This document shows, one piece after another, positions 4,643 through 64,000 of a stretch of DNA of 64,000 bases. Source of the stretch: Raja brachyura. Its lineage: Eukaryota. Made by a program: the position numbers and the translations under genes. The DNA is taken from NCBI GenBank assembly GCA_963514005.1, contig OY740809.1, positions 31,930,001 to 31,994,000 of the forward strand, in the 5' to 3' direction. The notes under the pieces are model-generated. The model had not been told where the DNA came from, made no database searches, and saw nothing but the letters and a program-made list of their open reading frames with translations. Within the stretch, counting starts at the first letter, position 1, and each line of letters starts with the position of its first letter.

Positions 4643-5335
4643 ATTCCAAGTCCGACAGAGGTTCACATGCACCTCCTCCAACCTCATCTACTGCATCCGT
4701 TGCTCCAGATGCCAGCTGATCTACATCGGTGAGACCAAGCGGAGGCTGGGCGATCGTTTTGCCGAACACCTCCGCTCGGTCCGCAATAACCAACCCGACC
4801 TCCCGGTGGCTCAGCACTTCAACTCCCCCTCCCATTCCGTATCCGACCTCTCGGTCCTGGGCCTCCTCCACAGCCAGAGTGAGCAACACCGCAAGTTGGA
4901 GGAACAGCACCTCATATTCCGCTTGGGGAGTCTGCATCCTCTGGGCTTAAACATTGAATTTTCTCAATTCTGTTAACCCAGACTGCCCCCACCCCTCCCC
5001 ACCTCTCCCTCAGCCCTCGGGCCCTGACATTCCTTCTCCATCTCCCCCCCCTCCCCAGTCGCACTAGCTTCTCATTTTCACACCACAAACAGCTTACAAT
5101 GGCCTGTTTCCCTTATCATCAATACTTTTTTGCATATCTTTCATTCATTGTTCTTTATCTCTCCACATCACCGTCTATATCTCTCGTTTCCCTGATCCCT
5201 GACCAGTCTGAAGAAGGGTCTCGACCCGAAACGTCGCCTATCTCCTTCGCCCCTTAGATGCTGCTGCACCCGCTGAGTTTCTCCAGCTTTTTGTGCAACC
5301 CTCGATTCTCCAGCATCTGCAGTTCCTTCTTTAAC
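4643..5335 (+). mobile_element. Penelope-like element 3' fragment (GIY-YIG endonuclease end, 3' region, hammerhead-like motif at 5204-5238)
   Basis: Encodes FTCTSSNLIYCIRCSRCQLIYIGETKRRLGDRFAEH; nearly identical to 27440-28120. Confidence 0.9.
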
Positions 5336-5559
5336 ACAGCGTGAATATTGATGTATCTAACTTTAAGTAACCCTTGTATTCCCTCTCTCTCCATCCACAT
5401 TCCAGCCTCTGCAGTCTCTTGTGTCACCAAAGCACAACAATAGCTCCTCACGGATACCAATCAGTAAAATATAAACTGCAGCACAACATCCAGCTACAAC
5501 TACAAAGCAGCAACTTCAGAAAACGAGACTAATTGAGAAGAGACAGACAGAATTCACCC

Positions 5560-5825
5560 AGCGACGGCCATCTTACCTCCGCTCCAACCACAGCCAATGG
5601 GGAAGTGTCTTACTCAACGATGCCGCTGCAAATGACGTCACCGCCGGCCAATCAGCGCGCAGATGTGAGAGCCCGACCCCCACAAGGACCGTGATTGACA
5701 GGGGAGCGGACCAATCAGACCGAGGTGGGCGGCGGGGGCCAATGCGGAGGCGCGTTGTCGGGAGGTGGAGGACGGGCCCTTGACGACGGGCTGTCGGTCG
5801 GAGCGGCGGAGACAAGGAGAAGAGG
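5560..5825. promoter_or_regulatory. Bidirectional CpG-rich ZCCHC17/SNRNP40 promoter, including the probable non-coding first exon of ZCCHC17 (donor GAG/gtaag at 5576)
   Basis: CCAAT at 5594, 5648, 5711 and 5739; CRE TGACGTCA 5633-5640; GC box GGGCGG 5727-5732; YY1-like GCCATCTT ~5567-5574; no TATA box; head-to-head genes. Confidence 0.85.
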
Positions 5826-5939
5826 ATGATCGACCAGAAGCGCAAGGCGCAGGAGATGGCGCTGGTGCAGGCCAAGCGCCCCCGCAACGACCTGCTGCCC
5901 CCGGTGCAGGGGGGCCCACAGCAGGCCGTGCTGCAGGCG
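5826..5939 (+). CDS. SNRNP40: SNRNP40 exon 1 (MIDQKRKAQEMALVQAKRPRNDLLPPVQGGPQQAVLQA)
   Basis: ATG at 5826, GCG/gtgagt donor; resembles the N-terminus of U5 snRNP 40 kDa protein; phase 0 joins exon 2. Confidence 0.9.
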
Positions 5940-6266
5940 GTGAGTCAGTGAATGAGTGGGGGCGGCTCAGCTCAGCTCAGCTCGGGCCGGGCCGGGCCAC
6001 GGCCACGTTACTGCCTTCTCCTTGCGTGTGTCGTGCACAGCCTAAAGTTGTAAGACAACTTGTTCTGTTTGTGCACGCCAGGTTGATTGCATTCGTCGAA
6101 ACAGGGTGGACCTGGTGAAGGTTGCAATCTCCCCATCCCCACCGTACTGCCGCTCTCCGAAGACAGACACACAACAAATGCTGGAGTAAACTCAACGAGA
6201 CAGGCAGTGTCCCTCTTCACTCGAGTGCCTTCTTCAGGCTGCGTTCCTGAATTAGTTCGGAGACAG

Positions 6267-6366
6267 GGGGGTTACACAAAAAGCTGGAGAAACTCAGCGG
6301 GTGCAGCAGCATCTAAGGAGTGAAGGAGATAGGCGACGTTTCGGGTCGAGACCCTTCTTCAGACTC
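6267..6366 (-). mobile_element. ~100 nt Penelope-derived mini-insertion beginning at the hammerhead-like core
   Basis: 12 bp TSD gttcggagacag (6255-6266, 6367-6378); CTGAAGA-AGGGTCTCGACCC-GAAACGTC on - strand. Confidence 0.85.
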
Positions 6367-6629
6367 GTTCGGAGACAGTTTCGTTTAGTTTATTGTCACG
6401 TGTACAGTGAAAAGCTCTAGTTGCGTGCTAACCAGTCAGTGGAAAAACAATACACGATTACAGTCAGTATTATACTGTATACAGGTACACGATAAGGACA
6501 TGTATAGGAAGGAACTGCAGATGCTGGTTTACACCAAAGAAAGACACAAAAAGCCGGAGTAACTCAGCGGGACAGGCAGCATCGCTTAAGAGCATGAATA
6601 GGTGACGTTTCGGGTCGAGATCCTTCTTC

Positions 6630-7050
6630 GTGGGCTTGTACACTCTGGAGTTTAGAAGGATGAGAGGAGATCTCATTGAAACGTATAAGATTGTTAAGGG
6701 ATTGGACTTGCTAAAGGCAGGAAACATGTTCCTGATGTTGGGGGAGTCCAGAACCAGGGGCCACAGTTTGAGATTAAGGAGTAGGCCATTTAGAAGGGAG
6801 ATGAGGAGACACTTTTTCTCACAGAAAATGGTGAGTCTGTGGAATTCTCTGCCTTGCAGGGCGGTAGAGGCAGGTTCTCTGGATGCTTTCAAGAGAGAGC
6901 TAGATGGGGCCCTTAAAAATAGTGGAGTCAGGTGATATGGGGAGAAGGCAGGAATGGGGTACTGATGGGGATGATCAGCCATGATCACATTGAATGGTGG
7001 TGCTGGCTCGAAGGGCTGAATGGCCTACTCCTGCACCTATTGTCTATTTG
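6630..7050 (+). mobile_element. CR1/HER1 LINE 3' fragment
   Basis: ORF 6630-6935 LEFRRMRGDLIETYKI...RTRGHSL...WNSLP, followed by the HER1-type 3' UTR. Confidence 0.9.
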
Positions 7051-8448
7051 TAGAATAACGTCTAGTGTGAAATAAAACCAGTAATGTGCGTCAAAGATAG
7101 TCCCATGGTCTCCAATGAGGTGACAGTAGTTCAGGACTGCTCTTTAGTTGTGGTAGGATGGTTCCGTTGCCTGATCAGGGACCCCCCCCATGCCCTTTCC
7201 CCCTCTCTGTTTTTACTCACTGGCAGACTGGAAACCCTTGCGGTTATTGTCACCCCAGCATTACCCCTTGAACGGTCAGATTTGTCCGTCTCTCAGGTTA
7301 AGCAATATCCCATCTGTCGTTGATCTGAGTTAACACCTTGTGTAGGAAGGAACTGCAGGTGCTAATTTACATTGAAGATAGACACAAATGCTGGAGTAAC
7401 TCAGTGGGTCAGGCAGCATCTCTGGAGAAAAGGAATAAGTGATGCTTTGATTTGGGACCCTTCTTCAGACTGCAACATCTGTGACATCCTGTAACTGCAT
7501 CTTATAATATCTACCTTTACCTTTGGAGTCAAGAGTGTTTAATTCTAAGTCTGAAGAAGGATCTTGACCTGAAATTATCATATTGAAGGGTGGTGCTGTC
7601 TCAAACGGCCGAATAACCTACTCTTGCACCTATTTTACTACGTTTCTAGAGCTGCTGCCTGAGCCGCCGAGTTACTCCAGCACTTTGCGTCGTTGTATTT
7701 AATTGTCTTATGCACTGACAATGGAGCTATGAAATTCCTACTTGAAACAACATTACAGGCCTGTAACACCATAAACGTTATATAATAATATAAAATAATC
7801 AAGAATAAAATAAATAAATAACCGCCAGTGTAACAAACAATTTCCTGGAGGAACTTGCTCTACCCAATTGTCCTGTTCCCATCTCTTTTGCACCTTTCCT
7901 CCCTGTAGTGCAATCTGTCTGAAGAAGGGACTGACATGAAAAGTGGTCTTTCCATTCCCTCCACTGATGCTGCCTGACCTGCTGAGTTTCTCCATCACTT
8001 TGTGTTTTGCTCAAGATTCCAGTATCTGTAGGTGCCTAGTCATCATATTGCTGCTGGAGGATCTGGGCGAGTTAACGCAGCTCACATTGTAGCCGATGGG
8101 GTCAGCATTTTTTTCAGGCTGCTGTCACTAACTGGATGTGCTTGGTCACTGTGGGGCTCCCTTCCCTCTCACCTGCTGCTGCTTCCTCCTGTTGGCCCGC
8201 AATTTGTTTCTCATCCACATCCTCCTCCTTCTTCCCTACAGTCGCCAACATCTTCCAAGGTGCAGTATTTAGGCGACTCCAGGGAAGGAGGAGGAGGGGG
8301 TGAAAAGGCTGAGTGGACAGAGCAACGAGAGGAGGAGGTGGTGGTGGTGAAGTGGGAGTGGACGAAACGATGTCCAACAGGAAGTAGCAGCAGCTGGTGA
8401 GGTGGGAGGAAGCCCCACGGTGGCCAGGCACACCCTGTCAGTGGTAGT

Positions 8449-10735
8449 AAACATAGAAATTAGGTGCAGGAGTAGGCCATTCGGCCCATCGAGCCTGCAC
8501 CGCCATTCAATATGATCATGGCTGATCATCCAACTCAGTATCCCGTACCTGCCTTCTCTCCATACCCTCTGATCCCCTTAGCCACAAGGGCCACATCTAA
8601 CTCCCTCTTAAATATAGCCAATGAACTGGCCTCAACTACCCTCTGCGGAAGAGAGTTCCAGAGACTCACCACTCTCTGTGTGAAAAATGTCTTTCTCGTC
8701 CCTGTCTTAAAGGATTTCCGCCTTATCCTTAAGCTGTGACCACTTGTCCTGGACCTCCCCAACATCGGGAACAATCTTCCTGCATCTAGCCTGTCCAACT
8801 CCTTAAGAATTTTGTACGTTTCTATAAGATTCCCTCTCAATCTCCTAAATTCTAGAGAGTGTAAACCAAGTCTATCCAGTCTTTCTTCATAAGACAGTCC
8901 TAACATCCCAGGAATCAGTCTGGTGAACCTTCTCTGCACTCCCTCTATGGCAATAATGTTCTTTCTCAGATTTGGACCCCCTAAACTGTACGCAATACTC
9001 CAGGTGTGGTCTCACCAAGACCCTGTACAACTGAAGTAGAACCTCCCTGCTCCAATACTCAAATCCTTTTGCTATGAAAGCTAACACACCATTCGCTTTC
9101 TTCACTGCCTGCTGCACCTGCATGCCTACTTTCAATGACTGGTGTACCATGACACCCAGGTCTTGCTGCATCTCCCCTTTTCCTAATCGGCCACCATTTA
9201 GATAATAGTCTGCTTTCCTGTTTTTGCCACCAAAGTGGATAACCTCACATTTATCCACATTATACTGCATCTGCCAAACATTTGCCCACTCACCCAGCCT
9301 ATCCAAGTCACCTTGCAGTCTCCTAGCATCCTCATTGCTATCACTGCCCCGTGTCCTCCGCAAACTTGGAGATATTGCCTTCAATTCCCTCATCCAAAGT
9401 CAAGTCAAGTCAAACAAACTTTATTGTTATTTAAAAATACATCGATATATGCAGTTCCAAACGAAATTCCGTTGCATTTGGCTCCCTGTGCAACACGATA
9501 ATTAACAGAAGGATAAACATGGATAAAATGGATAAAAAGGATAAATAGACAATGGTGGCAGCCCATTACATGGCATTCAGGAGTCTGATGGCTTGTGGGA
9601 AGAAGCTGTTGCAGAACCTTAATGTTCTGCTCCTTATGCTACGATATCTTTTGCCCGAGGGCAACAGAGTGAACAGTCCGTAATGGAGATGTGTGGGGTC
9701 TTTTATAATACTGCTGGCCTTAGACACGCAACGTTTGGTCACAATATCCCCGATTGAGGGGAGAGAGGTCCCGATGATTTTTTCCGCTGTCCTCACCACT
9801 CTCTGCACGGACTTCCAGTCAGAGGCTTTACAGTCCCCAAACCAGACAGAGATACAGCTGGTCAAAATACTCTCTATGGTCCCCCTGTAGAAAGTGGTGA
9901 GGATGGGATGGGGGAAGGTGAGCTCTTCTCATCCGGCGCAGAAAGTGCAACCGCTGCTACGCTCTCTTAACTGTTGATGAGATGTTATTTGACCAGGTCA
10001 GACTGTTAGTGATCTGCACCCCCAGGAACTTAGTGCTACTGACCACCTCCACATCGCTGTCATTGATGTGAAGTGGTATGGGACTGTGCCGGTTTTTCCT
10101 GAAGTCGACTATGACCTCCTTTGTTTTTTCGACATTCAGGATCAGGTTGTTCGTATTGCACCAGTCCACCAGTTGTTTCACCTCCTCCCTGTAAGCCAGA
10201 TCATTAATATGTATTGTAAATAGCTGGGGTCCCAGCACTGAGCCTTGGGGTGCCCCACTAGTCACTGCCTGCCATTGTGAAAAGGACCCGTTTACTCCTA
10301 CTCTTTGCTTCCTGTTTGACAGCCAGTTCTCTATCCACATCAATACTGAACCCCCAATGCCGTATGTTTTAAGTTTGTATACTAATCTCTTGTGTGGGAC
10401 CTTGTCGAAAGCCTTCTGGAAGTCCAGATACACCACATCCACCGGTTCTCCCTTATCCACGCTACTAGTTACATCCTCGAAAAATTCCATAAGATTCGTC
10501 AGACATGATTTACCTTTCGTAAATCCATGCTGACTTTGTCCAATGATTTCACCACTTTCCAAATGTGCTGCTATCCCATCTTTAATAACTGACTCTAGCA
10601 GTTTCCCCACTACCGATGTTAGACTAACTGGTCTGTAATTCCCCGTTTTCTCTCTCCCTCCCTTCTTAAAAAGAGGGGTTACGTTTGCTACCCGCCAATC
10701 CTCAGGAACTATTCCAGAATCTAAAGAGTTTTGAA
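8449..10735 (-). mobile_element. CR1/HER1 LINE fragment (8449-9398 and 10196-10735) split by a Rex1-type insertion
   Basis: CR1 RT ORFs 8535-8939, 8887-9393 and 10196-10754; the peptide INDL/DEGIEGNISKF is contiguous across the insertion. Confidence 0.9.
9397..10195 (-). mobile_element. Rex1/Babar-clade LINE 3' fragment with (TTGAC)n tail
   Basis: AYREEVKQLVDWC, KTKEVIVDFRK, LPSGKRYRSIRSRT, NSFFPQAIRLLN motifs. Confidence 0.88.
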
Positions 10736-11672
10736 AGTAGTCTGAAGAATGCACAGTTCTCAGGCGCTACAATGTCAGTCGCAATAATAGCGGCGTCAAC
10801 CAATGTATGGTGAGTGAAGAAGGGCTCGCTGGTGCAGACCAGCGGTATCGGCTCCTAGTCCTCTGGTGAAATGACACAAAATGCTGGAGCAACTCAGCAG
10901 ACTGAATCAGTCTGAAGAAGAGTTCCGATGGCACCTATCCATGTTCTCCAGAGATGTGTCTGGCCTGCTGAGTTTACTCCAGAACTTTGTGTCCTTTTGT
11001 GTATTAACCATCATCTGCATTTCTTTGTTACAACTACATACAATGATTATATCTCACTTGGTTATAGCAGACTAGTGTATAAGGATACCCTCTAGGGTAC
11101 TTTATGAGGGTTTACTGTATAAAAAATATACTCCCTCCAAATGCCAGAAATTCAAATCAGTTTTTCCAGGCAGTATTTCTAACTGCTAAGAAGTTCAACT
11201 TCTCATGGCTCATGTGGCAAATAGTACACTAACTGTGCCTAAAAAAATGTATCCTGTAATGCTGAGATCAGCAGAAATTGCTAGAAGTGCATGCAACGTG
11301 AATCATGAACCAGAAATCCTATTTTAAACAGATCTTGTATAAATATAGCCAGTGTTGTTAAAAATAAACTTTTTCCTGCTTGTCTAAGTTATTGACATTG
11401 AATCCAGTGAAACTGACATTGTGAATTTTGTGGGTTTGGGATTCGGAAAGGTGTTTGGCAGACATGAACCAAAATTCCAAGATCTGTCAGTTTAATAAAC
11501 TTGTCGTATAAGGAGATTGAAGGTTTAAAATCTACGTGTCACTGGCAGATATCAGTGTAAGCCCCCTGGCCATGTACGGATGTAGTTCTCAGAACTGGAA
11601 AATTCTCAGCCCTTCAAACAAAAAGGTGGCACACCTGATCGAGCTGCTGCCTTGCCGCACCAAAGACCTGGG

Positions 11673-13129: not shown

Positions 13130-13877
13130 CTCTACAGCATATAATCCTCCAACACTTTTCCCACCTCCAACAGGATCTCACTATTGGCCACACCTTCCCA
13201 TCTCCACCCCATTCTGCTTTCCGCAGAGACCATTCCCTCTACAATTTTCTGGTCAACTCATCTCTTCCCACCCAAACCCTCCCCAGGTTCATTCCCCTGC
13301 AACTGCCGGTCCCTTTACCTCCCCCCCCCCCCCCCCTCGACTCCATCCAAGGACCCTGACAGTCTTTTCAGGTGAGTTAGAGGTTCACCTGCACCCCCTC
13401 CAACCTCATCTACTGTATCTGCTGTTCCAGGTGTCATCTTCTGTACATCTGCGAGACCAAACGCAGCCTCGGCGATCGTTTTGCTGAACCTTACCCTACC
13501 TGATCTCCCGGTGGCTCAGCACTTTAACTCCCCCTCCCATTCCCAATCTGACCTTTCTGTCCTGGGCATCTTCCATTGTCAGAGTGAGGCCCAGCGCAAA
13601 TTTGAGGAACAGCATCTCATATTTCGCTTGGGTAGCTTACACCCCAGCTGTATGAACATTGACTTCTCGAACCTCAAATAGCCCTTGCTTTCCCTCTTTC
13701 TCCATCCCCTTCCCGGTTCTCCCACCGGTTGTTCTGTCTCTGACTACATTCTATCTCTGTCCCGCCCACTCCCCTGACATCAGTCTGAAGAAGTGTCTAG
13801 ACCTGAAATGTCACCCTTTCCTTCTCTCCAGAGATGCTGCCAGTCCCGCTGAGTTACTCCAGCATTTTGTGTCTACC
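13130..13877 (+). mobile_element. Degenerate Penelope-like fragment
   Basis: Frameshifted homology to the GIY-YIG region (PDLPVAQHFNSPSHSQSDL) and a decayed hammerhead-like tail at ~13782. Confidence 0.85.
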
Positions 13878-13882
13878 TAGAG

Positions 13883-16505: not shown

Positions 16506-16725
16506 TGTTTAAGAAAGATCTGCAGATGCTGGAAATTACGAAGGTGGACAAAAATGCTGGAGAAACTCAGCGGGTGAGGCAGCATCTATGGAGCGAAGGA
16601 ATAGGTGACGCTTCTGGTCGAGACTGAAGTCTGAGTCTGAAGATGCGTCTTGACCAGAAACGTCACTTATTCCTTCGCTCCATAGATGCTGCCTCATCCG
16701 CTGAGTTTCTCCAGCATTTTTGTCT
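16506..16725. mobile_element. Palindromic head-to-head pair of Penelope tails inserted as one unit
   Basis: 14 bp TSD acagtaaagcataa (16492-16505, 16726-16739); arms are reverse complements. Confidence 0.85.
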
Positions 16726-23929: not shown

Positions 23930-24269
23930 GTAAATATTAACTCTTATCAGACCTTGGGCTATATGTATTATCTTTAAATCTATAATTTCCCCGATAACTG
24001 AACTGTGTTTCAAATATCCTTGTAATGTCAAGAATAAAGAGTGATGGAAATCATTTAAATTTAATTTGTGAAGTAATAGGAAATTTTAATTAAATTCACC
24101 GCAACAATATTTTGCTTAACAGTGCATAACCGCTTATGGTGAAAATCAGCAGGTTCCAAAATTCTGACTGAATTAAATAATCTTTGTAAATTAAAGCTGT
24201 TGAAAATTGGGGGGGGGGGGGAAGATTATTAAACCCATCAGCAGTGAATGTTGACATTATTCCTTTTAG

Positions 24270-24373
24270 GTTTGTGTATGTCTGGGATACAACATCACGA
24301 AGAATTCTGTATAAGTTACCAGGACATGCAGGCTCAGTGAATGAGGTGGCATTTCATCCTGAAGAACCGATCA
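24270..24373 (+). CDS. SNRNP40: SNRNP40 exon 9 (FVYVWDTTSRRILYKLPGHAGSVNEVAFHPEEPI)
   Basis: ORF 24244-24492; ag/gt boundaries, 104 nt. Confidence 0.98.
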
Positions 24374-25285
24374 GTAAGTGTTGTATTATTGGGATGCTCT
24401 CAGAGAGGTTAAACAAAGGTTCTAAGATGTCTTGTGTCGGCGCTGAAATGGAGCGGGCGTTCGTGTCCTGGCTTCTTCCGCTGCTTGTTTGATGGCTTCT
24501 AGGCTCTATGGTTCAATAGTTCTTTGTTGTCACGTATGCACTGCACAGTGAAATTATTTTTGCATAACATCGCACATTTATGAGTCGCCATATTTTGGCG
24601 CGATTTACAGAAGTCCAAAGTCCGGTCCACAAGCTCGGTGTATTGGAGCGGCTCCCGGCCCAGATAAGCCTCAGGCCGCTGTGGGGCCTCCTCCGACACC
24701 CTCAACCATCTTGGCACGCGATCCAACGTCCCTCTCCTCGCTCGGCTGCCTCTGTGTCCGGGGGGTGCTTCCTTCAGCTGACCTACTTGTACTCTGAAAC
24801 CCTTGCTGTAATTCATTGACTAAAGCACTTTAAAATATATCAATATCAATACCACAGATGTTAGATAAAATCTTTCTCCTTTTTACTATATATGCAAAAG
24901 ATTCCTTACTGATTTGGTGCTGCTCAAGCCCATTATCTTTGAATCACAAACTGAGTGTTTAGAAAACTTAAAAATCCTTGATAAAGCTACACGGATTCTA
25001 AGATGTGTTTTGAGAAAATAGTGAATAATCTGTAATGTAATAAACTTTATGAGCGTGTAATTTCAATCTGTTTGATGGTTTGCCAGAAACATTTATTTTG
25101 GTTGGCTTGCTGCTGTGATCGCAAGGCTTATTGAAGCACGCCATTAATGTTACTTTATTTAATGCAATGCGGCTTTTGTTGCATCCAAATAATGGTAGAT
25201 AAAACAATATTTCAGAACAACTGCAAATCAGTTTTATAATTTGAGTGATTGTTGTATTGACGGATAATTTTTTTTATTCCTTCAG

Positions 25286-25859: not shown

Positions 25860-28380
25860 GGATGCATTGGTTTATTATTCTCACATACACCAGATGAAGA
25901 ACTTTATTTCTGTGTAATCCAGTCAAGTCCTAATATACATGAGTAGAATCATACTCTGCACAAGTACAACATAGTGCAAAGAGAAAAATACCAGAGTGTA
26001 GAATATAGCATTATCGTGGTGGAGTTACCGAGAAAGTGCAGATTAAAATAAAATGTGCAAGGCTTGAAATGAGGAAGGTTGGAAGACCAGGACCATACCC
26101 CACCTTCTATGAGGAGCATTCAGTAATCCGATCACATTGGGGAAGAAGCTGTTCCTGAATCTGGTGGTATTTGCTTTCAAGCTTTTGCATTTTATACCCA
26201 ACAGGAGGTGGGAGAAGAGGGATTGGCTGGGCAGAAAATTGTCTTTGATTCTTTTTGGTGCTTTCCCAAGGTAGCGTGAAGTGTAGAATCAGTTGATTGG
26301 GGTGGAAACTACCTTGTGTGATGAACTGGGCTACAACCACAGCTCTCTTCAATTACCTGCAGCTTTGGGCTGAGCTGTTGCCGACCTAAGCAGTGATGCA
26401 TCCCATTAGGATGCTTTATTCTGTAGAGGTTAGTAATTGGTGGAGACATGCCGAACTTCCTTGGTCTTTGAGGAAGTAGAGGCATTGTTGTGCTTTCATG
26501 ACCGTGGCTTCAGTATGGTTGGCCCAGAACAAATTGTTGGTGATATTTACGCATGGAAACTTAAAGCTCTCAACCATCTCACTTTGACACTTTGATGCTG
26601 TCCTCGCTTCCTGAAGTCAATAACCTAGCTACGCCTGCCTCTTTGTCGGGTACGTCGAACAATCTTTGTTCTCGGCGTACCAGGGCCCCACCCCCGACCT
26701 TTACCTCCGTTACATTGACGACTGCTTTGGTGTCACCTCCTGCACCCACGCAGAACTGACTGACTTTATCCATTTCACCACCAACTTCCATCCGGCACTC
26801 AAATATACTTGGACCATTTCCGACATTTCCCTACCATTCCTTGACCTCACCATCTCTATTGCAGGTGACACACTCCTGACTGACATCCACTACAAACCAA
26901 CTGACTCCCACAGCTACCTGGACTACTCTTCCTCCCACCCTGCTTCCTGTAAGGACTCCATCCCCTATTCCCAATTCCTCCGACTACGCCGCATCTGCTC
27001 CCAGGATGACGTGTTCCACACCAGGTCATCGCAAATGTCCTCGTTCTTCAGAGAACGGGGTTTCCCCTCCCCCACTATCGATGAGGCTCGCACCAGGGTC
27101 TCCTCCATACCCTGCAACACTGCCCTCTCTCCCCATTCCCCCACTCACAACAAGGGCCGAGTCCCCCTGGTCCTCACCTTTCACCCCACCAGCCAGCGCA
27201 TACAACAGATAGTCCTCCGCCAGTTTCGCCACCTCCAACGTGACCCCTCCACTCGCCACATCTTCCCATCTCCCCCCCTGTCTGCCTTCCGCAAAGACCG
27301 CTCCCTCCGCAACTCTCTCGTCAATTCTTCCCTTCCCTCCCGCTCCACTCCTTCCCCGGGCACTTTCCCTTGCAACCGCAAGAGATGCTACACTTGTCCC
27401 TTCACCTCCCCCATCCACTCCTTTCAGGGACCCAAGCAGTCATTCCAAGTCCGACAGAGGTTCACCTGCACCTCCTCCAACCTCGTCTACTGCATCCGTT
27501 GCTCCAGATGCCAGCTAATCTACATTGGTGAGACCAAGCGGAGGCTAGGCGATCGTTTCGCCGAACACCTCCGCTCGGTCCGCAATAACCAACCCGACCT
27601 CCCGGTGGCTCAGCACTTCAACTCCCCCTCCCACTCCGTATCCGACCTCTCGGTCCTGGGCCTCCTCCATGGCCAGAGTGAACAACACCGCAAGTTTGAG
27701 GAACAACATCTCATATTCCGCTTGGAGTTTGCATCCTCTGGGCTTAAACATTGAATTTTCTCAATTCTGTTAACCCAGACTGCTCCCTTCCCCCCCCCCC
27801 CCCCCCACCTCTCCCTCAGCCCTCGGGCCCTGACATTCCTTCTCCATCTCCCCCCCCCCCCCCCCCCCCAAGTCGCACTAGCTTCTCATTTTCACACCAG
27901 AAACAGCTTACAATGGCTTGCTTCCCTTATCACCAATACTTTTTTGCATATCTTTAACTCATTGTTCTTGCTTTATCTCTCCATATCACTGTTTATATCT
28001 CTCGTTTCCCTGATCCCTGACCAGTCTGAAGAAGGGTCTCGACCCGAAACGTCGCCTATCTCCTTCGCTCCTTAGATGCTGCTGCACCCGCTGAGTTTCT
28101 CCAGCTTTTTGTGTAACCCTCAATAACTTCTTTGTCTTGCTGGCGTTGAGGGAGTGGTTGCTGCCTCTTTCATCCTTGTACTCGGTGTCATCATAGTTTG
28201 AGATCCGGCCCACTATAGTGATATCCTCTGCAATCTCATTAATGGAGTTAAGTAGAATTTGGCCGCACAGTCATGAGTGTAGAACAAAGGTAGTAAAGGG
28301 CTGAGAAGGCATGTTTATGGGGCACCAATGCTGAGAATTATCGTGGAGGATATTTTATTGCCTATCCTCACCAATTGTGT
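25860..28380 (-). mobile_element. Old Rex1-type LINE fragment (~25860-26624 and ~28120-28380) split by the Penelope insertion
   Basis: Degenerate RISNYDDTEY, SLNASKTKK and FRNSFFP-like segments on either side of the insertion. Confidence 0.65.
26625..28120 (+). mobile_element. Young 5'-truncated Penelope-like retroelement: RT C-terminus (RYIDD), thumb and GIY-YIG endonuclease in one 362 aa open frame, followed by a hammerhead-like motif at 28022-28056
   Basis: ORF 26666-27754 (YLRYIDDCF, LPFLDL, YKPTDSHSYL, NLVYCIRC..YIGETKRRLGDRFAEH); TSD tcaataac at 26617-26624 and 28120-28127. Confidence 0.95.
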
Positions 28381-29463: not shown

Positions 29464-29487
29464 CTGCAAAACAAAATAAGACAAGGG

Positions 29488-32344: not shown

Positions 32345-32885
32345 CTGTAGATTATTTCTCTATATTCACACCACTAAGCCATTTAATAAATATTAAATGC
32401 CATGAGTGCCTAGTACTGTATTTATTGAAGAAGGCAGACCCAGCCTGCTGAAACTTTCCTATATGAGGGTTGATAGATTTATTCTGCACTTTCTCCGTAA
32501 TATTTCAACGGTGTTTCATGCCAATCCAAATTCAACATGCACTCTCCTCTGGCTGCCTTGATCAAAGTTCCATATGAATTTAACATTACTGCCCTGTTTT
32601 TTTGTAGTCTATTGTTCTGGAAAGGTATTATGAAGAAAGTAATTCACTGCAAACTGTTTTATATGTAGGAAGGAACTGCAGATGCTGGTTTATACCGAAG
32701 ATAGGAAGAAAAAGCTGGAGTAACACAGTGGGTCGGGCAGCATTTCCGGAGAAAAGGAATAGGAGACATTTCGGGTCAAGACCTTTCTTCAGACTGAGTC
32801 AGTGGAGAGGGAAACTAGGGGTTTGAAAGGTGTTGGCTCTGTTTTGTTCTGAAGTCTGAAGAAAGGTCTCGACCCAAAACGCTAC

Positions 32886-33453
32886 AGGGCCTGTTCCACC
32901 AGCATGCAACTCTATGCGATGAACGCGATCAAACCGGCACCGGGGGCCGCGCGGAGGTCGGGTGATCCCCTGTACAGGGCCGTTCCCACCAGCATGCGCC
33001 TGCATGCGGCAAGCGCAACTAAACTGGCAGCGAGGGCCGCGCGGAGGTCGGGTGAGTGGTGCAACGCTGCGCAAAGCAAGACGAACTTGGAGCAAGTCCA
33101 AGGTAAGTTCGCCAGGACTTAGAGGGGCACACAGAGAGGGGCACCGAGGCACACACACATACAGGGCCACGGAGCCACACACAGAGAGGGTCACGGAGGC
33201 ACTTACAAATAGGTTCACGGAGGCACGATGTGTGTAAATGTCGAGGCGACTGCGAGCCGACAAGCCGTTGCTGCGCGGAATTTTTGGACATAGTCGGTTT
33301 TTCGGAGCCCCGCGCGGTGTCGGGACGAACGCCGCACAATTCCGCACGGCTCCGGCGATCGAAGTGGGACCGGCCCCGCGACGCCGGACGGCTCAAGCGA
33401 CCACATTAGGTCGCGCTAATCGCATAGAGTTGCATGCTGGTGGGACAGGCCCT
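32886..33453. mobile_element. PIF/Harbinger-type MITE, 568 bp, GC-rich
   Basis: ~35 bp TIR agggcctgttccaccagcatgcaactctatgcgat; 3 bp TSD tac; inserted in a Penelope tail. Confidence 0.8.
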
Positions 33454-37291: not shown

Positions 37292-38139
37292 CTCGCTAGC
37301 GATTCCTCAGCCCACTGGCTCCTCCTCTTCCTTTCTTCTTCCGTCCCCACCCTCACATCAGTCTGAAGAAAGGTTTCGGCCCGAAACATTGCCTATTTCC
37401 TTCGCTCCATAGATGCTGCCTCACCCGCTGAGTTTTTCCAGCATTTTTGTCTACCTTCGATTTTACAGCATCTGCAGTTCCTTCTTAAACAAAAGTTTGT
37501 TTGTGTGATGGTCTGGGCTGTGTCCACAATTCTCTACTGGAGTCCTTCCAAAGATGCCTGGCCTACCTACTCATCTAAAACTACAAGATCCGGCTTCAAA
37601 AAACTTCAATCCTGCTTGGATGTTAAAAAGGACAAGTTCTCATGACTAATCTGTGGATAAACTGGGGAGAAAAAAAAGATGTTCTCTTTCAAAACAAAAA
37701 AAGCCCTGGACTAAGTCAGCGGCTCAGGCAGCATCTCTGGGGAACATAAATACCCACAAAGGGATTCGCTGACCTGCTGAGTTACTCCAGCACTTTTAAC
37801 TATTTTTTTGCAAACCAGCATCTGCTGTCCCTTGAGTCTCCTCTCGACTGTTAATGAGGGAGGCAAATTGACAACTTATAAGGAACTCTTGATGTTACAT
37901 TGAATGCATGCGTAATGCAATCCACATTTGGCGCAAAATCTACCTTGCTGTAATCTGATCAAGAAAGTTCTCCTAACCATTGTGGGCTCTCTAAGCAGAG
38001 ATCACAAAACTCTGAAGAAGGGTTTCGGCCCGAAACGTTGCCTATTTCCTTCGCTCCATAGATGCTGCCGCACCTGCTGAGTTTCTCCAGCACTTTTGTC
38101 TACCTTCGATTTTCCAGCATCTGCAGTTCCTTCTTGAAC
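37292..38139 (+). repeat. Segment duplicated in inverted orientation at 61868-62701
   Basis: Long unique stretches are reverse complements, e.g. gactaatctgtggataaa and aggcaaattgacaacttataaggaactcttgatgttacattgaatgcatgcgtaatgcaatccacatttgg. Confidence 0.95.
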
Positions 38140-53257: not shown

Positions 53258-53354
53258 GAAGTCTGAAGAAGGGTCTCGACCCGAAACGTCGCCTATCTCC
53301 TTCGCTCCTTAGATGCTGCTGCACCCGCTGAGTTTCTACAGCTTTTTGTGTACC
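53258..53354 (+). mobile_element. 97 nt Penelope-derived mini-insertion headed by the hammerhead-like core
   Basis: 12 bp TSD aagcgatgttag (53246-53257, 53355-53366). Confidence 0.88.
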
Positions 53355-55215: not shown

Positions 55216-56284
55216 GGACCTTGAATCTATCCCCCTGTATTTCTATGAGCCTATCTAAAAACCTCTTAAACACCACCATCATATCTGCCTCCACCACCAC
55301 CACCCCCGGCAATGCGTCGCAGGCTCCCACCACCCCTTGTGTGTTGCGTATAGGAAATTACACTGTACATCTCCATACAACTTTCTCAGTTAAAGCTATG
55401 CCCTCTAGTCCCTGACATTTCCATTCTGGAGAAAAAAAGTTTTGACTGACTACGCCAGGGCTGCCCAACCATTTTAGTCCCGTTTAGCCCAGGCAACTTT
55501 AATAGCACATAACAATGTTAGTTCACTTATTTATGAACAACTAATGATGAACAGAGTGTTAAAGAAGGAACTGCAGATGCTGGAGAATAGAGGGTTACAC
55601 AAAAAGCTGGAGAAACTCAGCGGGTGCGGCAGCATCTAAGCAGCGAAGGAGATAGGCGACGTTTCGGGTCGAGACCCTTCTTCAGGCTGGTCAGGGATCA
55701 GGGAAACGAGAGATATAGACAGTGATGTGGCATAGAGTTGGAGGGAAGGGGGTATCACAGAGCGGGAGCAGTTAGAGAGGAGGTTGTGAAACTGTCTTCG
55801 TAGGGAGGAGGAGAACTTCTTCAAAGTAGACATACATTGAGGAGATATCGCAGTGGAGTAGACAAAGTGTTAAAGAAGGAACTGCAGATGCTGGACAGAT
55901 ACCGGTATACCAGACCCAAACACAGTCAGTCAATGAGAAAAAATATGTACAAATCCCGAATCAACAAATTTACTCCCTGGGGGGGAATTTATCCCAGGTT
56001 GGGAAACCTTGGTCTGCCCAATCGATGCCTCATAATCTTATATACTTCTATCAAGTCTCCCCTCAACCGACATAATATCAAGGTGATATTATTGTGAGGT
56101 CTTATCTCACCTCACAGATGGGCAAAAGATCCCAAGATGTCAAGAATAAGACAACTCTCCTAATGTCAGCCAAATTCTTAACGATCACTCCCATAATCAA
56201 CTTACGTAGCAACTTGCAAGGAATATGTCCCATTCAATCAGACCACTCGTCGAGCTGGACCATTTCAATGCTAATTTATCTTAC

Positions 56285-56755: not shown

Positions 56756-57497
56756 CAGTGGCTTGCAAAAGTTTTCATACCCCCTTGAATCTTTCCACAT
56801 TTTGTCACGTTACAACCACAAACGTAAATGTATTTTATTGGGATTTTATGTGATAGACCAACACAAAGTGGTGCATAATTCTGAAGTGGAAGGAAAATGA
56901 TACATGGTTTCCAAATTTTATTACAGATAAAAAACTGAAAAGTGTGGCATGCAAAAGTATTCAGCCCCCCTGAGTCAATACTTTGTAGAACCACCTTTCG
57001 CTGCAATTACAGCTGTATGTCTCTACCAGCTTTACACATCTAGGGACTGAATTTTCTGCCCATTCTTCTTTACAAAATAGTTCAAGCTCAGTCAGATTGG
57101 ATGGAGAGCATTTGTGAACAGCAATTTTCAAGTCTTGCCAGAGATTCTCAATTGGATTTAGGTCTGGACTTTAACTGGGCCATTCTAACACATGAATATG
57201 CTTTGATCTAAACCATTCCATTGTAGCTCTGGCTGTATGTTTAGGGTTGTTGTCTTGCTCAAAGGTGAACCTCTGCCCCAGTCTCAAGTCTTTTGCAGAC
57301 TCTAACAGGTTTTTTTCCAAGATTGCCCTGTATTTGGCTCCATCCATCTTCCCATCAACTCTGACCAGCTTCCCTGTCCCTGCTGAAGGAAAGCATCCCC
57401 ACAGCATGATACTGCCACCACCACGTTTCACAATGGGGATGGTGTGTTCAGGGTGATGTGCAGTGTTAGTTTTCCGCCACACATGGCGTTTTGCCAG
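56756..57497 (-). mobile_element. Tc1/mariner transposon fragment: one IR/DR-type TIR plus DD34E transposase segment
   Basis: TA-CAGTGGCTTGCAAAAGT terminus with inner repeat at ~56950; ORF 57171-57515 [14 protein letters not shown]...[10 protein letters not shown]...VLEWPS. Confidence 0.92.
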
Positions 57498-58046
57498 GCT
57501 TTGCCCTGCTCCCACCTCTCTTTACCAGCATTTCATCCCTCCTACTAGAATCAGTCTGAAGTAATGTCCTGGTCAAATCATCATCTATTCATATCCTCCA
57601 GAATGCTGCCTGACCCGGCAAATTACACAACCCTGCCACTTGTGTCTCCATATAAAAACCTTGCCTTTGTATAAAAAAGCACATAAAAAGATAGATATTT
57701 CTCACTATGCGCGTTGCCAATTCACAAGTTCATAGGTGCATAAGTGATAGGAGCAGAATTGGGCAATTTGGCTCATCAAGTCTACTCCGCCACTCGTTCA
57801 TGGCTGATCTATCTCTCCCTCCTAACCCCATTCTCCTGCCTTCTCCCCATAATCCCTGACATCCGTACTAACCAAGAAATTCCCCGAATATCTGAAAATA
57901 CAACACGAAACATGTGGCTCTGATCTTCACCACAGGTCAATACAACCCTATTGCAAATCTAGCTTGAATGTTGCATTGTTACTTCATTAGACTCCACCAA
58001 ATTCAATTGTATTGATTGATCGATCTCCTTGGCAGTTCATACTCAC

Positions 58047-58193
58047 CCCATATCCAGCTGTCTTGGTGGATGGCTGGCCATGGCTAAACTAATTAGCAGA
58101 ATTAGAATTGCTGATGAACTGCTGGAGCCAAATCATCATTTTGAGTAACTACATTTATTGGATTGATAGTCGGAGGGAGCAGTTTAATTGGGA
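58047..58193 (-). pseudogene. Exon-like segment with strong splice sites but stops in all frames (non-coding or decayed exon)
   Basis: tctcttttttttttaag acceptor, GGG/gtgagt donor, 147 nt. Confidence 0.35.
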
Positions 58194-60042: not shown

Positions 60043-60309
60043 TGGGGATGGGTGGACCTGCGGTCAAGTCCGCTCGGCCGGCGGTGCCATTCTTTCTTTC
60101 TTTCTCTCCCTCTCTTCTCTCGTCTGCCTTTTTTCTTCAGACGCTTAATTCGGACTGAGAGTTTCTTGCCCAGAGTCGCAAGTTGGAGTTCTGGAACTTC
60201 GCGACAAAGGGAGAGAATTCACGGTGGAATGTTCTTACAATGAGGCCTCTGAAGCTGCAGGAACCACGGGTATCTCAAACCCTGGTGAGATGGGTGGTGA
60301 CTTAACCTT

Positions 60310-60402
60310 GGGTTACACAAAAAGCTGGAGAAACTCAGCAGGTGCAGCAGCATCTAAGGAGCGAAGGAGATAGGCGACGTTTCGGGTCGAGACCCTTCTT
60401 CA
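60310..60402 (-). mobile_element. 93 nt Penelope-derived mini-insertion ending at the hammerhead-like core
   Basis: 11 bp TSD gacttaacctt (60299-60309, 60403-60413). Confidence 0.88.
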
Positions 60403-61189
60403 GACTTAACCTTATCTGAGAGACTCACCCCATCACTAACCCCCATTTAAAATAATCTAACTGGCAAGTAGCAAATTAACGTTTAAGCGGGCCAAACGTC
60501 CTGAAGAATGAACAGATCACAGTAGACAATAGACAATAGGTGCAGGAGTAGGCCATTCGGCCCTTCGAGCCAGCACCGCCATTCAATGTGATCATGGCTG
60601 ATCATCCCCAATCGGTACCCCGTTCCTGCCTTCTCCCCATATCCCCTGACTCCGTTATTTTTAAGAGCCCTATCACTTACATGGACATGGACAGAGCAGC
60701 TTTAGAGGGAACATGGGCCAAATGCAGGCAGGTGGAACTATTGTAGATGGGACATGTTGGCTGGTGTATGGAACGAGCTGCCAGAGGTGGTAATTGAGGC
60801 AGGTACTATCGCAACGGGCTCGGTGTGGGCAAGTTGGGACGAAGGGCCTGTTTCCACGCTGTAAGACTCTAGTCGTTGGTGACAATATGTGGCTGTGCCA
60901 CTCGCCTCCACATAACATAGAATGAATGGCGCAGAAGTTACTGTACGTAGAGGGTTTATGGGGAGAAGGCAGGAGAATGGGGTTGAGAGGGAAAGATAGA
61001 TCAGCCATGGCGGATTAGACTCGATGGGCCGAATGGCCTAATTCTGGTCCGACAACTAATGAAGATACAAGGAACTGCAGATGCTAGTTTATACAACAAA
61101 AATACACGAAGTGCTGGAGTAACTCAATATTAAATTTGGAGATGAAGGCACAAAATGCCGGAGTAACTCAGCGGGTCAAAGACCATCTC

Positions 61190-61555
61190 GAGATGGACAG
61201 GCTAGATGTAGGAAGATTGTTCCCGATGTTGGGGAGGTCCAGAACAAGGGGTCACAGTCTAAGGATAAGGGGGAATTCCTTTAGGACCGAGATGAGGAAA
61301 ACATTTTTCACACAGAGAGTGGTGAGTCTCTGGAATTATCTGCCACAGAAGGTAGTTGAGGCCAGTTCATTGGCTATATTTACGAGGGAGTTAGATGTGG
61401 CCCTTGTGGCTAAAGGGATCGGGGGTATGGAGAGAAGGCAGGTACAGGACACTGAGTTGGATGATCAGCCATGATCATATTGAATGGCGGTGCAGGCTCG
61501 AAGGGCCGAATGGCCTACTCCTGCACCTGTTGTCTATGGTTCTATGTTTCTATGA
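61190..61555 (+). mobile_element. CR1/HER1 LINE 3' fragment
   Basis: ORF 61136-61474 RSRTRGHSLRIRG...; (TTTCTATG)n tail. Confidence 0.9.
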
Positions 61556-63313
61556 GGGACGAGACACAATGTGCTGGAGAAACTCAGCGGGCCAGGTAGC
61601 ATCATAGAAACATAGAATATCTCTGGATTACAAAAAAATGGGCGATGTTTCGGATCAGGACCCTTCTTCGGACTCCAGAGATGCTGCCCGTCCCGCTGGG
61701 TTACTCCAGCACTTTGTATCTATCTTTGACATAGACCAGCACCTGCAGTTCCTTCTGTCAGCATGTCACTGGGGAACGTGGAGAGGCGGCGTTTCTGCGT
61801 CGGGACCCTTCTTCACTCAGTTGGAAATATTCAAGAGTTTTCTGATCCGAGCGATCGAACTGCACATTTTTAAGAAGGGACTGCAGATGCTGGAAAATCG
61901 AAGGTTGTCAAAATGCTGGAGAAACTCAGCGGGTGAGGCAGCATCTATGGAGCGAAGGGAATAGGCAACGTTTCGGGCCGAAACCCTTCTTCAGAGTTTT
62001 GTGATCTCTGCTTACACAGCCCACAATGGTTAGGAGAACTTTCTTGATCAGATTACAGCAAGGTAGATTTTGAGCCAAATGTGGATTGCATTACGCATGC
62101 ATTCAATGTAACATCAAGAGTTCCTTATAAGTTGTCAATTTGCCTCCCTCATTAACAGTCGAGAGGAGACTCAAGGGACAGCAGATGCTGTTTTGCAAAA
62201 AAATAGTTAAAAGTGCTGGAGTAACTCAGCAGGTCAGCGAATCCCTTTGTGGATATTTATGTTCCCCAGAGATGCTGCCTGAGCCGCTGACTTACTCCAG
62301 CACATTTTTTGTTTTGAAAGAGAACATCTTTTTTTCTCCCCAATTTATCCACAGATTAGTCATGAGAACTTGTCCTTTTTAACATCCAAGCAGGATTGAA
62401 GTTTTTTGAAGCCGGATCTTGTAGTTTTAGATGAGTAGGTAGGCCAGGCATCTTTGGAAGGACTCCAGTAGCGAATTATGGACACAACCCAGACCATCAC
62501 ACAAACAAACTTTTGTTTAAGAAGGGACTGCAGATGCTGGTAGACAAAATGAAGGAAAAACTCAGCGGGTGAGGCAGCATCCATGGAGCGAAGGAAATAG
62601 GCAACGTTTCGGGCTGAAACCCTTCTTCAGACTGATGTGAGGGTGGGGACGGGAGAAGAAAGGGAGAGGGGGAGCCAGTGGGCTGAGGAATCGCTGGCGA
62701 GTTAGATGTGGCCCTTGTGGCTAAAGGGATCAGGGGGTATGGAGAGAAGGCTGGTACAGGATACTGAGTTGGATGATCAGCCATGATCACATTGAATGGC
62801 GGTGCAGGCTCGAAGGGCCGAATGGCCTACTCCTGCACCTGTTGTCTATGTTTCTATGTTTCTATGAGAGACGAGACACAATGTGCTGGAGCAACTCAGC
62901 GGGCCAGGTAGCATCATAGAAACATAGAATATCTCTGGATTAAAAAAAAAATGGGCGACGTTTCGGATCAGGACCCTTCCTCGGACTCCAGAGATGCTGC
63001 CCGTCCCGCTGGGTTACTCCAGCACTTTGTATCTATCTTTGACATCGACCAGCACCTGCAGTTCCTTCTGTCAGCATGTCACTGGGGAACGCGGAGAGGC
63101 GGCGTTTCTGGGTCGGGGACCCTTCTTCACTCAGTTGTAAATATTCGAGAGGCAGTTTTCTGATCCGAGCGATCGAACTGAACATTTTTAAGAAGGGAAC
63201 TGCAGATGCTGGAAAATCGAAGGTTGTCAAAATGCTGGGGAAACTCAGCGGGTGCGGCAGCATCTATGGAGCGAAGGAAATAGGTGACGTTTCGGGTCGA
63301 AATCCTTCTTCAG
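61388..63313 (+). repeat. Direct duplication of ~600 bp (61388-61993 and 62699-63313) bracketing the inverted copy of 37292-38139
   Basis: ORFs 61638 and 62951 share MGDVSDQDPSSDSRDAARPAGLLQHFVSIFDIDQHLQFLLSACHWGT; same composite junctions in both copies. Confidence 0.93.
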
Positions 63314-64000
63314 ATTCTTCAACTGAACATTTTATCTATGTGTTAAAGAAGGAACTGCAGATGCTGGAGAATCGAGGGTTACACAAAAAGCTGGAGAAAC
63401 TCAGAACATTTTATCTAGTTCCCCTCTCCCCGCCTGAGAATTGACACTATTTTAGCTTTCAGGATTCTGCCATCTGTTGCACATGGATTTTTATTTTTTG
63501 CTGGTGTTTAAACGCGGAGGAAGTAAAACTGAGCGGACTATCAGCATAATAGGGACGCCTTTATCCTGGCAGTGGCACTTGGTAATAGAGTTTGTATTGC
63601 CATCCTCTCGCCAGCGCTTTGTACAGGAAACAATCGCATTGAAAGCGCTCGCTAGATGTCAGCAGTTACTGTAGCGGGAATCCGCCAGGAATGTGACGGC
63701 GGCCCCCAACATGTCTTGCCAAGGAGCTACTGTTTCCCAATTGCAAATTTAAATCTGCCCAGAAAGATGGCCACAGTTGTGGTTGAATTAAGTGCCCGTC
63801 CCAATGCAGGGAGGAGAGGGGTAACACAAGCGCCGTTTGACAAATGAACATGGGTGTGAGTCAGCCCGGACCACAGTCTGAAGAAGGGTCTCGACCCGAA
63901 TCGTCGCCTATCTCCTTCGCTCCTTAGATGCTGCTGCACCCGCTGAGTTTCCCCAGCCTTTTGTGTACACCTCGATTCTCCAGCATCTGCAGTTCCTTCT

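Follow-up and report, generated by a model that had tools for sequence, protein, structure and literature searches.

A minimal type I hammerhead motif in the pseudo-LTRs of a young Neptune-type Penelope element of Raja brachyura, with genomic junctions that suggest rare cleavage in the animal

Penelope-like elements (PLEs) carry minimal hammerhead ribozymes in both pseudo-LTRs (pLTRs). As aligned by Cervera and de la Pena (2014; PMC4209133), these combine a CUGANGAH core, a G...C stem II and GAAA-N-palindrome-N-UH with a short helix I and a pyrimidine- or U-rich flank; an extra nucleotide after the core is a listed trait, and the copies are dispersed, mostly solo or on opposite strands. Minimal PLE hammerheads barely cut in vitro, and the sections of that study cited here give no evidence of cleavage in vivo. 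Craig et al. (2021; PMC8557442) call their function unclear. For PAc, which is a Poseidon element from Anolis carolinensis, cutting by the hammerhead requires the element protein (Frangieh et al. 2024; PMC11167929). Dimer-cleaving PLE hammerheads with a very short palindromic stem III have been described by Lunse, Weinberg and Breaker (via PMC6765202); a variant from a shark or skate may already be among theirs. Non-LTR retrozymes are non-coding, pLTR-related, hammerhead-bearing repeats defined as tandem arrays, and animal retrozymes were found in one chondrichthyan (bioRxiv 10.64898/2026.07.22.740005).

We analysed a stretch of 64,000 nucleotides of the R. brachyura genome (the window; contig OY740809.1, positions 31,930,001 to 31,994,000), in which a sequence-only reading had placed a hammerhead-like repeat at eleven positions. 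The motif was found at all eleven, on the strand given (table 1). Numbering starts at C3 = 0 and puts the predicted cut at +28, after GUC as the reading had expected and as the hammerhead rule supports. Six copies carry the exact 28-mer (5208+, 6362-, 28026+, 53263+, 55685- and 60403-). A full descriptor of the minimal hammerhead (core, extra H, 4-bp stem II, GAAA, self-complementary NN, UH) fitted nine of the eleven named copies and nothing on either strand of the reversed window; the exceptions were the copy at about 63286-63313(-), through a stem II mismatch, and that at 63878(+), which has one mismatch to the 28-mer (A15.1 to T) that breaks the core. CUGANGA and GAAA, flanking a stem II whose first pair is G10.1-C11.1, are likewise present in nine of the eleven (control 0). 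The extra nucleotide is A in 264 of 274 near-full units, the palindrome at 15.2-16.2 reads ACGU without a loop 3 and is followed by C or U, and helix I has 2 bp (U-G or U-A plus G-C). At the level of sequence, this confirms the core-bearing repeat as a real hammerhead motif of the Penelope type, minimal type I with a palindromic stem III, sharing every feature of the PLE alignment outlined above and agreeing with its >80% consensus. The very short palindrome and predicted dimer also match the dimer-cleaving hammerheads, compared by description only.

Table 1. Features of the window; strand and basis are given where available.
Feature	Position	Strand	Basis or remark
GIY-YIG end of second young copy	4632..4976	+	
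Hammerhead in pLTR of second young copy	5208..5235	+	exact 28-mer, descriptor
Hammerhead, short copy starting at -3	6335..6362	-	descriptor
Older ORF end, 73% identical, with decayed pLTR unit	13133..13873	+	
Example of head-to-head unit pair	16551..16720	.	one of 14 in window
5'-truncated Penelope ORF (RT end, C-X4-C-X2-C linker, GIY-YIG)	26624..27754	+	
3' pLTR of 26624 copy, ending at proximal 3' end point (+95)	27755..28121	+	
Likely capped element RNA start, -3/-2	28023..28024	+	5'-end pile-up, extra G
Hammerhead of minimal type I (core CUGAAGA, extra A, CUCG loop, GAAA, ACGU, C17)	28026..28053	+	fits published consensus
Stem II of 28026..28053 hammerhead	4 bp	+	descriptor
Predicted scissile bond after GUC, +28	28053..28054	+	hammerhead rule; genome-wide copy ends, A-tailed junctions
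Second-subfamily hammerhead (UUCG loop, U-G closing pair, U17)	38012..38039	+	descriptor
Short insertion, -3 to +89, 12-bp target-site duplication; hammerhead 53263-53290	53260..53352	+	
Hammerhead within longer pLTR piece	55658..55685	-	exact 28-mer, descriptor
Short insertion, -3 to +93; hammerhead 60376-60403	60310..60406	-	11-bp duplication overlaps its 5' end
Second-subfamily hammerhead	61967..61994	-	descriptor
Second-subfamily hammerhead, loop variant	62603..62630	-	descriptor
Copy with stem II mismatch	63286..63313	-	fails descriptor
Short copy from -4 into tail; core broken at A15.1	63874..64000	+	

The extra A, the ACGU palindrome and the 2-bp helix I had been flagged as odd; all three occur in the published alignment (PMC4209133), so the motif belongs to a known kind. 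Its ACGU stem III is common to the fugu, cichlid, Xenopus and lamprey rows, whereas stem II (4 bp versus 5-7 bp) and stem I (2 bp versus 3-6 bp) are shorter than in the vertebrate rows, while invertebrate rows include both lengths; no cartilaginous fish is among the rows compared. The hammerhead search proposed from the letters alone was answered by the descriptor and not by Rfam, which returned no hammerhead family among 56 matches in the window (E up to 1), all low-complexity hairpins. This null says only that Rfam models miss such minimal hammerheads. A second subfamily (GGGTTTCGGCCC) does keep stem II as claimed, through U-G, and also has U for C at position 17, which had gone unmentioned. 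Its change from U-A to U-G is one-sided and is no covariation; between copies we found only one-sided changes and no double-sided compensatory one. A pattern for diverged families in which N7 is U or C gave 3,267 matches (control 30); by eye, the 100 listed appear to be point variants of one and the same family, without a compensatory pair, and these candidates were rejected. The subfamilies differ at 0 of 27 motif positions versus 7 of 56 others (p = 0.09), and in four runs from four organisms variants of at least 10% were absent from 28026-28052 versus eight places at 28053-28084.

The host is a young Neptune-type Penelope element with the motif within both pLTRs. The element has a 1,191-aa ORF with RT and GIY-YIG; profile matches to RVT_1 (E = 3e-4) and GIY-YIG (E = 1.5e-3) both lie below Pfam's cut-offs, and GIY-YIG exceeds its cut-off in the copy at 4632. 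In translation, the RT-EN linker reads C-X4-C-X2-C, which fits the CX2-5CxxC of Neptune EN+ PLEs (PMC8557442). The C-terminal GIY-YIG, a pLTR from a partial tandem, an inverted 5'-truncated copy, a 30-40-bp tail and a pLTR hammerhead are likewise shared with them. The putative assignment to the Neptune clade rests on the linker motif and on the report of only Neptune and Poseidon among vertebrate PLEs (bioRxiv 10.64898/2026.07.22.740005); PAc, by contrast, is a Poseidon element (PMC11167929). In three of ten long loci (L019, L020, L021) the hammerhead lies in sense on both sides of the ORF, and in two more the 5' pLTR is cut inside or after it. The sequence-only reading had rightly placed the motif in sense downstream of the ORF, about 230-270 nt past the ORF ends at 4632-4976 and 26624-27754, and had missed the 5' pLTR copy, 164 nt before the ATG, which unlike that of PAc does not overlap the ATG (PMC11167929). 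Dispersal by a young element was also borne out, all 109 scored ORF matches being 97-100% identical.

An initial look at the cut site, with breaks in 2 of 124 young copies and 1 of 100 among the matches listed, suggested no signal, which was seen only by targeted junction counts. Estimated clean 5' ends at +26 to +31 numbered 37, 27, 158, 35, 63 and 81 (from 20-30 loci per position, ignoring microhomology shifts). The excess at +28 over its neighbours has a ratio of 3.1 (95% range 1.7-5.4), and +28 ranked first in only 95% of resamples. AAA directly preceded +28 at 29 places, versus 5, 6 and 3 for +29, +30 and +31 (all 61 matches listed); about nine of the 29 lie on one small contig, on unplaced contigs or in a near pair and may be duplicates, which would leave about 20. 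Five of 11 inspected +28 loci consisted of variably ending sense element sequence, 3-4 extra A and an exact +28 start, three of the five with the A-tailed junction within one target duplication, while four of six control loci were plain deletions using the element's own GAAA. The broader pattern AAAA-N(0-6)-anchor was of little use because its 271 matches were mostly point changes at C15.2. Repeating the junction test on the second subfamily revealed no raw excess (4 at +28 versus 13, 10 and 38; 100 of 138 matches listed). Only locus inspection rescued a cut signal there: the +28 loci inspected were A-tailed (3/3), those at +29/+30 plain deletions (5/5), and those at +31 inverted (8/10) or other (2/10). 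A-tailed element RNA joined exactly at the cut is likely to be the scar of rare cleavage in vivo, and rare breaks exactly at the predicted position suggest that the hammerhead does cut in the animal.

Could the motif instead be a silent passenger, kept as a promoter or RT-binding signal, with the +28 excess due to RT pausing at a hairpin or to noise? More than 99% of young copies are unbroken at the cut (an estimated 158 broken of at least 54,345), as this would predict, and the second subfamily has no raw excess. In Anolis, core mutants leave in vitro insertion unaffected, and the RNA-seq reported there has no reads ending at the cut (PMC11167929), a difference from the rare skate junctions on it. 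The predicted folding also favours this explanation, since at minimum energy the core is paired with the tail and a CGAC/GUCG hairpin ending at G28 arises. When the 130-nt unit is folded, the predicted probability of stem II is below 1% and that of stem I nil. For the 2-bp helix I a predicted pairing probability of only about 0.06 is recorded; an intermolecular ACGU helix gains about 3 kcal/mol over two monomers and is not the best co-fold. The whole-unit fold is, however, no more stable than shuffles (z = -1.49; 19 of 200 fold equally well), and tail-core pairing as an anti-ribozyme switch was rejected on the same figures. Pausing would leave unexplained the A runs that join G1.1 exactly to variably trimmed element RNA, and the catalytic consensus is matched throughout, from the core and its extra base to the G-C pair and the palindrome. 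We consider a silent passenger unlikely.

Where the element RNA begins is indicated by the 5' ends of 124 young copies, a sample partly picked from the intact-motif list, with most of it lying in one contig's first 4.2 Mb and a few duplicates included. Sixty-one start at -5 to 0, a density of about 10 per nt that compares with 0.18 upstream of this pile-up and 0.58 downstream of it, and the 3' ends fall at two fixed points, +88-95 and +120-131. Among the matches listed, copies starting at -2 are directly preceded by G in 61 of 100 (expected 36%). The base before AGT is G in 4,404 cases versus A in 2,901 and T in 2,172, i.e. 46% G versus 34% expected. Randomly truncated long copies have G before the start in 9 of 27; the local test alone gives 15/25 versus 9/27 (p = 0.09), and some random truncations, too, carry additional bases rich in G (4 of 11 that have such additions; three further cases). 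An untemplated 5' G is an accepted cap mark for LINE-1 and SVA (PMC4859970). The pile-up and the extra G point to run-off copying to the capped start of uncut RNA, and with a start at -3/-2 the 5' arm of stem I would be only 2-3 nt long. A splice acceptor in place of a capped start, with the short copies made from spliced RNA, is suggested by a stretch rich in pyrimidines whose closing CCAG lies one base before -1, and has a precedent in a D. virilis intron with its end at helix I's 5' end (PMC4209133). We regard it as very improbable: 25 of 43 non-inverted copies in the pile-up have a target duplication no more than 12 nt from the 5' end, which leaves no room for an exon, the peak lies at -4 to -2 (45 copies) and not at -1 (7), and the junction has an excess of G. 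Separately, loose contig ends before 28022-28024 showed low agreement (0.33-0.45) in three of four runs, consistent with a fixed 5' end among relatives. These four come from 24 runs, all of them contigs and two recorded as RNA, both with a small share; assembled contigs cannot show RNA starts or ends, and the loose ends were left out of the start claim.

The motif forms the 5' part of a unit of about 92 nt, of which the window holds 61, covering 7.3% (reversed control 0). Stretches totalling 400 kb, sampled at round-number genome positions, contain 164 units, or 3.3% of bases (control 0), with the 31-nt ribozyme part at about 1.3%. The earlier view that ribozymes gave rise to much of the short repeat content was therefore overstated. 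Against the 164 units stand only 34 descriptor matches: the majority of copies are decayed. The exact 28-mer occurs 50,608 times genome-wide (control 0); by scaling we estimate about 1.1 million unit copies and about 10^5 intact ones, against 4,000-9,000 reported in coelacanth and Xenopus (PMC4209133). The short copies are end pieces of the Penelope element and no ribozyme family. Decayed units in the window include 14 head-to-head (fold-back) pairs, and none of its eight tandem-repeat rows is the hammerhead unit; the skate copies, dispersed or fold-back, differ in this from retrozymes, with which they share the non-coding, pLTR-related, hammerhead-bearing make-up. A self-propagating SINE- or retrozyme-like family with an internal promoter, cutting and re-ligating into circles, is suggested by the roughly half of young copies that are 95 or 130 nt long with their own target duplications, by one 61-nt head-to-tail array (L272-L274) in which every unit starts at +28, and by the proposal that animal retrozymes derive from pLTRs (bioRxiv 10.64898/2026.07.22.740005), but has very little probability, given that the short copies are identical in sequence to long young copies, lack a tandem layout and start at the core, where a cut and circularised monomer would start at the cut, and that the lone array may be a local duplication.

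Taken from genomic copies, our preferred reading is that the pLTR of a young Neptune-type element carries a minimal type I hammerhead, which probably makes up the first 31 or so nucleotides of a capped RNA; most insertions are likely made from this RNA in its uncut state, and the motif likely cuts only on rare occasions. Cutting is predicted to need a second motif copy or the element protein. RT would start at two fixed 3' points: on the 3' pLTR copy this would give long, randomly truncated insertions, and on the 5' pLTR copy run-off at the cap after 95 or 130 nt, hence the short copies. PAc likewise has two RT starts about one 'tail' apart near the pLTR-ORF junction, and uncut RNA as its main substrate (PMC11167929). 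On cut RNA, RT would run off at G1.1, after which it would either join the target or switch to the end of an A-tailed RNA, in many cases a trimmed upstream piece of the element's own RNA. We lean slightly towards the fuller proposal that the genome holds a fossil record of Penelope hammerhead self-cleavage in vivo, in which cutting would decap the RNA at its 31-nt capped ribozyme and RT would jump from the cut end to the oligo-adenylated, 3'-trimmed upstream fragment or to other A-tailed RNAs. Our search found no literature on a cartilaginous-fish case, the 5' pile-up or A-tailed junctions; this is weak evidence of novelty, as the search left out most subscription papers as well as Repbase and Dfam.

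For a Penelope element the motif is unremarkable in itself; rare events become countable in a family with tens of thousands of nearly identical copies. If the fuller proposal is true, ribozyme activity could be assayed from sequence alone, by counting junctions, in any Penelope family of high copy number. Should the +28 junctions hold, they would speak indirectly for cutting by the ribozyme in the germ line. Should the -3/-2 start hold, it would account for a stem I of 2 bp as well as for the abundance of short copies of fixed length, and would suggest that cutting, by removing the cap, limits the element, and that copying does not need it.

The sequence-only reading had placed a hammerhead motif, intact or nearly so, at 11 positions of the window. 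The motif was present at all 11, and nine matched the full descriptor (core, extra H, 4-bp stem II, GAAA, self-complementary NN and UH), six as exact 28-mers and three as intact forms of the second subfamily, which has a UUCG loop, a U-G closing pair and U17; none matched in the reversed window. Of the other two, one has a mismatch in stem II and one a broken core. The motif heads a unit of ~92 nt, of which the window holds 61 copies (7.3% of the window; control 0), 28 of them in 14 head-to-head pairs. The exact 28-mer occurs 50,608 times in the 2.7-Gb genome (control 0). Forty 10-kb stretches, chosen at round-number places, contained 164 units, or 3.3% of bases, and 34 descriptor matches (controls 0), which scales to ~1.1 million units in the genome and a ribozyme part of ~1.3% of bases. 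Three descriptor matches in this sample (L041:1-10000 to L067) have a CUGAUGA core and different stems, and may be other, older hammerhead families or chance. The head-to-head pairs form fold-backs (for example 16551-16720, 34464-34633 and 38826-38983), with junctions frequently on short palindromes of the element. Solo and inverted pseudo-LTRs (pLTRs) and target duplications are described in part of PMC3846280.

The remaining features of the window include two exon-sized pieces of host genes, which resemble ZCCHC17 and SNRNP40, head to head; if so, many of the repeat copies would be intronic. The LINE fragments are presumably of CR1/L2 type, and the near-dimer is a later insertion. A frame at 57171-57521 (-), which in our view resembles a Tc1-type transposase piece, gave no match in a Pfam search.

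Other features of the window
Feature	Position	Strand	Remark
S1 RNA-binding domain, exon-sized host-gene piece	1955-2281	-	E = 5e-6
WD40 piece, exon-sized host-gene piece	24190-24492	+	weak match
LINE fragment	8535-10766	-	RVT_1 E = 2e-27 at 9957-10766
LINE fragment	6606-6935	+	
90-bp near-dimer	32883-33055		splits, between 32885 and 33453, a single pLTR unit

The motif almost certainly belongs to the minimal hammerheads that Penelope-like elements (PLEs) carry, a kind already described. The published consensus (Cervera and de la Pena, PMC4209133) reads CUGANGAH, G...C, GAAAN-palindrome-NU, H; the paper counts the additional base and the palindrome among the traits of the family, and its alignment includes a 2-bp helix I in Culex, D. 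virilis and Oikopleura and a 3-4-bp helix II in Caenorhabditis; every trait of the Raja motif falls inside the range seen there. Among 274 near-full units, drawn from 545 matches after removal of partial, duplicate and motif-selected ones, the ribozyme varied in its loop, in the closing pair (U facing either A or G), at position 17 and at CpG sites. Covariation, sought across these units and the five largest haplotype groups, was not shown. The majority base differed among the five groups at 0 of 27 ribozyme positions versus 7 of 56 downstream non-defining positions (p = 0.09), and no variant at 10% or more was found within 28026-28052 in contigs of four organisms. A literature search found nothing on the motif in cartilaginous fish or on the A-tailed junctions described below; Lunse et al. 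and supplements (bioRxiv, PMC4209133 file 1, Frangieh et al.) may bear on both.

The host element was traced from a 376-aa frame at 26624, for which all 109 scored matches were 97-100% identical, several of them lying in open frames of ~1,200 aa. Three of the ten long loci fetched from the genome (L019-L021) have the order pLTR, 1,191-aa ORF, pLTR, with a hammerhead in both repeats, 164 nt upstream of the ATG. The 1,191-aa protein gave weak RVT_1 and GIY-YIG matches and contains a C-X4-C-X2-C linker, a type named as a mark of Neptune/Nematis in part of PMC8557442. Taking the first C of the core (window 28026) as position 0, copies have two 3' end points, at +88-95 and +120-131, and 119 of 124 young copies, selected with an anchor that lies downstream of the cut, end inside or adjoining them. 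The stretch between is the usual PLE tail, which in Anolis reflects two start sites of the reverse transcriptase (RT), according to a portion of PMC11167929. Near-invariant across subfamilies, AGAUGCUG (window 28074-28081) finds its complement, CAGCAUCU, in the tail (+102 to +113). A helix formed by the pair, between the two RT start points, is a candidate for RT binding.

The same 124 copies, part of them picked from intact-motif places and the majority from one contig end, start at -5 to 0 in 61 cases, at -60 to -6 in 10, at +1 to +31 in 18 and farther upstream in 35, the last being partly artefacts of poly-C tracts and a 900-nt limit. A target duplication lies within 12 nt of the end in 25 of 43 non-inverted copies of the -5 to 0 peak, so that each of these is its own insertion, without an exon in front. 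G was in excess before the start: at -2, the first 100 of 11,205 matches had it in 61 cases (36% expected; counted by eye, with a search pattern that excluded T one base further up), and at -3 it preceded 4,404 of 9,477 (34% expected; inverted pairs may contribute some). Thirteen non-inverted -2 loci, from the 21 of 30 that allowed classing, had extra bases after the duplication in six, ending in G in all six; by comparison, G preceded the end in 9 of 27 long random truncations. An untemplated G is the accepted cap mark (PMC4859970, in part), and Penelope of D. virilis has an internal promoter within the pLTR (PMC2377424, in part). The element RNA thus probably has a capped start at the motif (-3/-2), with the caveat that G-rich extra bases also occur at some random truncations. 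Such a start leaves space for a stem I of 2-3 bp only.

Cleavage is predicted between +27 and +28. Nearly all copies run across the scissile bond, so that they were copied from a template either not cut or joined again. Rare cleavage events were sought by counting junctions at which a position is preceded by two mismatching bases; for +26 to +31 these numbered 52, 21, 157, 88, 80 and 123. Clean ends were estimated by inspecting 30, 20, 30, 20, 30 and 30 loci and scaling up the clean fraction, which gave 37, 27, 158, 35, 63 and 81; a slightly different clean-end rule gives 12 versus 11 clean loci at +28 and 5 versus 6 at +27. The clean-end ratio for +28 was 3.1 (1.7-5.4), and +28 was the top position in 95% of resamples. 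Runs of at least three A preceded the junction at 6 of 30 loci at +28, compared with 2 of the 80 across +29 to +31 (p = 0.005). Genome-wide, AAA immediately before the junction was counted by eye at 29 places for +28 (~20 once likely duplicates are collapsed) versus 5, 6 and 3 for +29, +30 and +31. At 5 of 11 inspected +28 loci, element sequence that stops at +27, +24, ~+2 or far inside the ORF is followed by 3-4 extra A and then the exact +28 start, three of these loci lying inside one target duplication. At one more, L271 (contig G000:C2, ~15949735-15949915), 116 nt of foreign A-ended sequence is joined exactly to the cut site within one target duplication, possibly by Penelope RT capturing another RNA. 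Of the remaining inspected +28 loci, one comes after a poly(A) signal plus 12 A, another is an inversion and three are unexplained; six control loci included four plain deletions and one inversion. A free RNA 5' end at G1.1, with a presumed RT jump onto oligo-adenylated ends, would produce the A-tailed +28 junctions. On balance, we favour the view that the hammerhead cleaves in vivo. Ends at +28 account for ~0.3% of the anchor copies, which number at least 54,345; this share gives no measure of the fraction of RNA cut.

Two further arrangements were seen near these positions. A 61-nt head-to-tail array (L272-L274; G000:C2:55272483-55272629) consists of units without the ribozyme, every one beginning at the predicted cut; it could be a rolling copy of a cut fragment or a local duplication. 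At three loci (L360, L368 and L398) the +30/+31 junctions follow the beginning of the element's ORF region, in sense or antisense orientation; these are unexplained internal jumps.

With an anchor for the second subfamily, the raw count ran in the opposite direction (4 at +28 versus 13, 10 and 38 at +29 to +31, counted by eye among the first 100 of 138 listed). All three inspected +28 loci had A-tailed junctions, two of them joined to element sequence. All five loci at +29/+30 were deletions using the element's own GAAA, and at +31 eight of ten were inverted and two were not. These loci are consistent with the cut-site reading, in numbers too small for confirmation.

Folded alone, the 36-nt motif was predicted to form stem II in roughly half of cases and stem I in ~6%. 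In the 130-nt unit the core was predicted to pair with the tail, leaving stem II at <1%, and this core-tail fold was not better than in shuffled sequences. Low or protein-assisted activity is reported for PLE minimal hammerheads in parts of PMC4209133 and PMC11167929, and the weak folding predicted here would fit such activity of the family.
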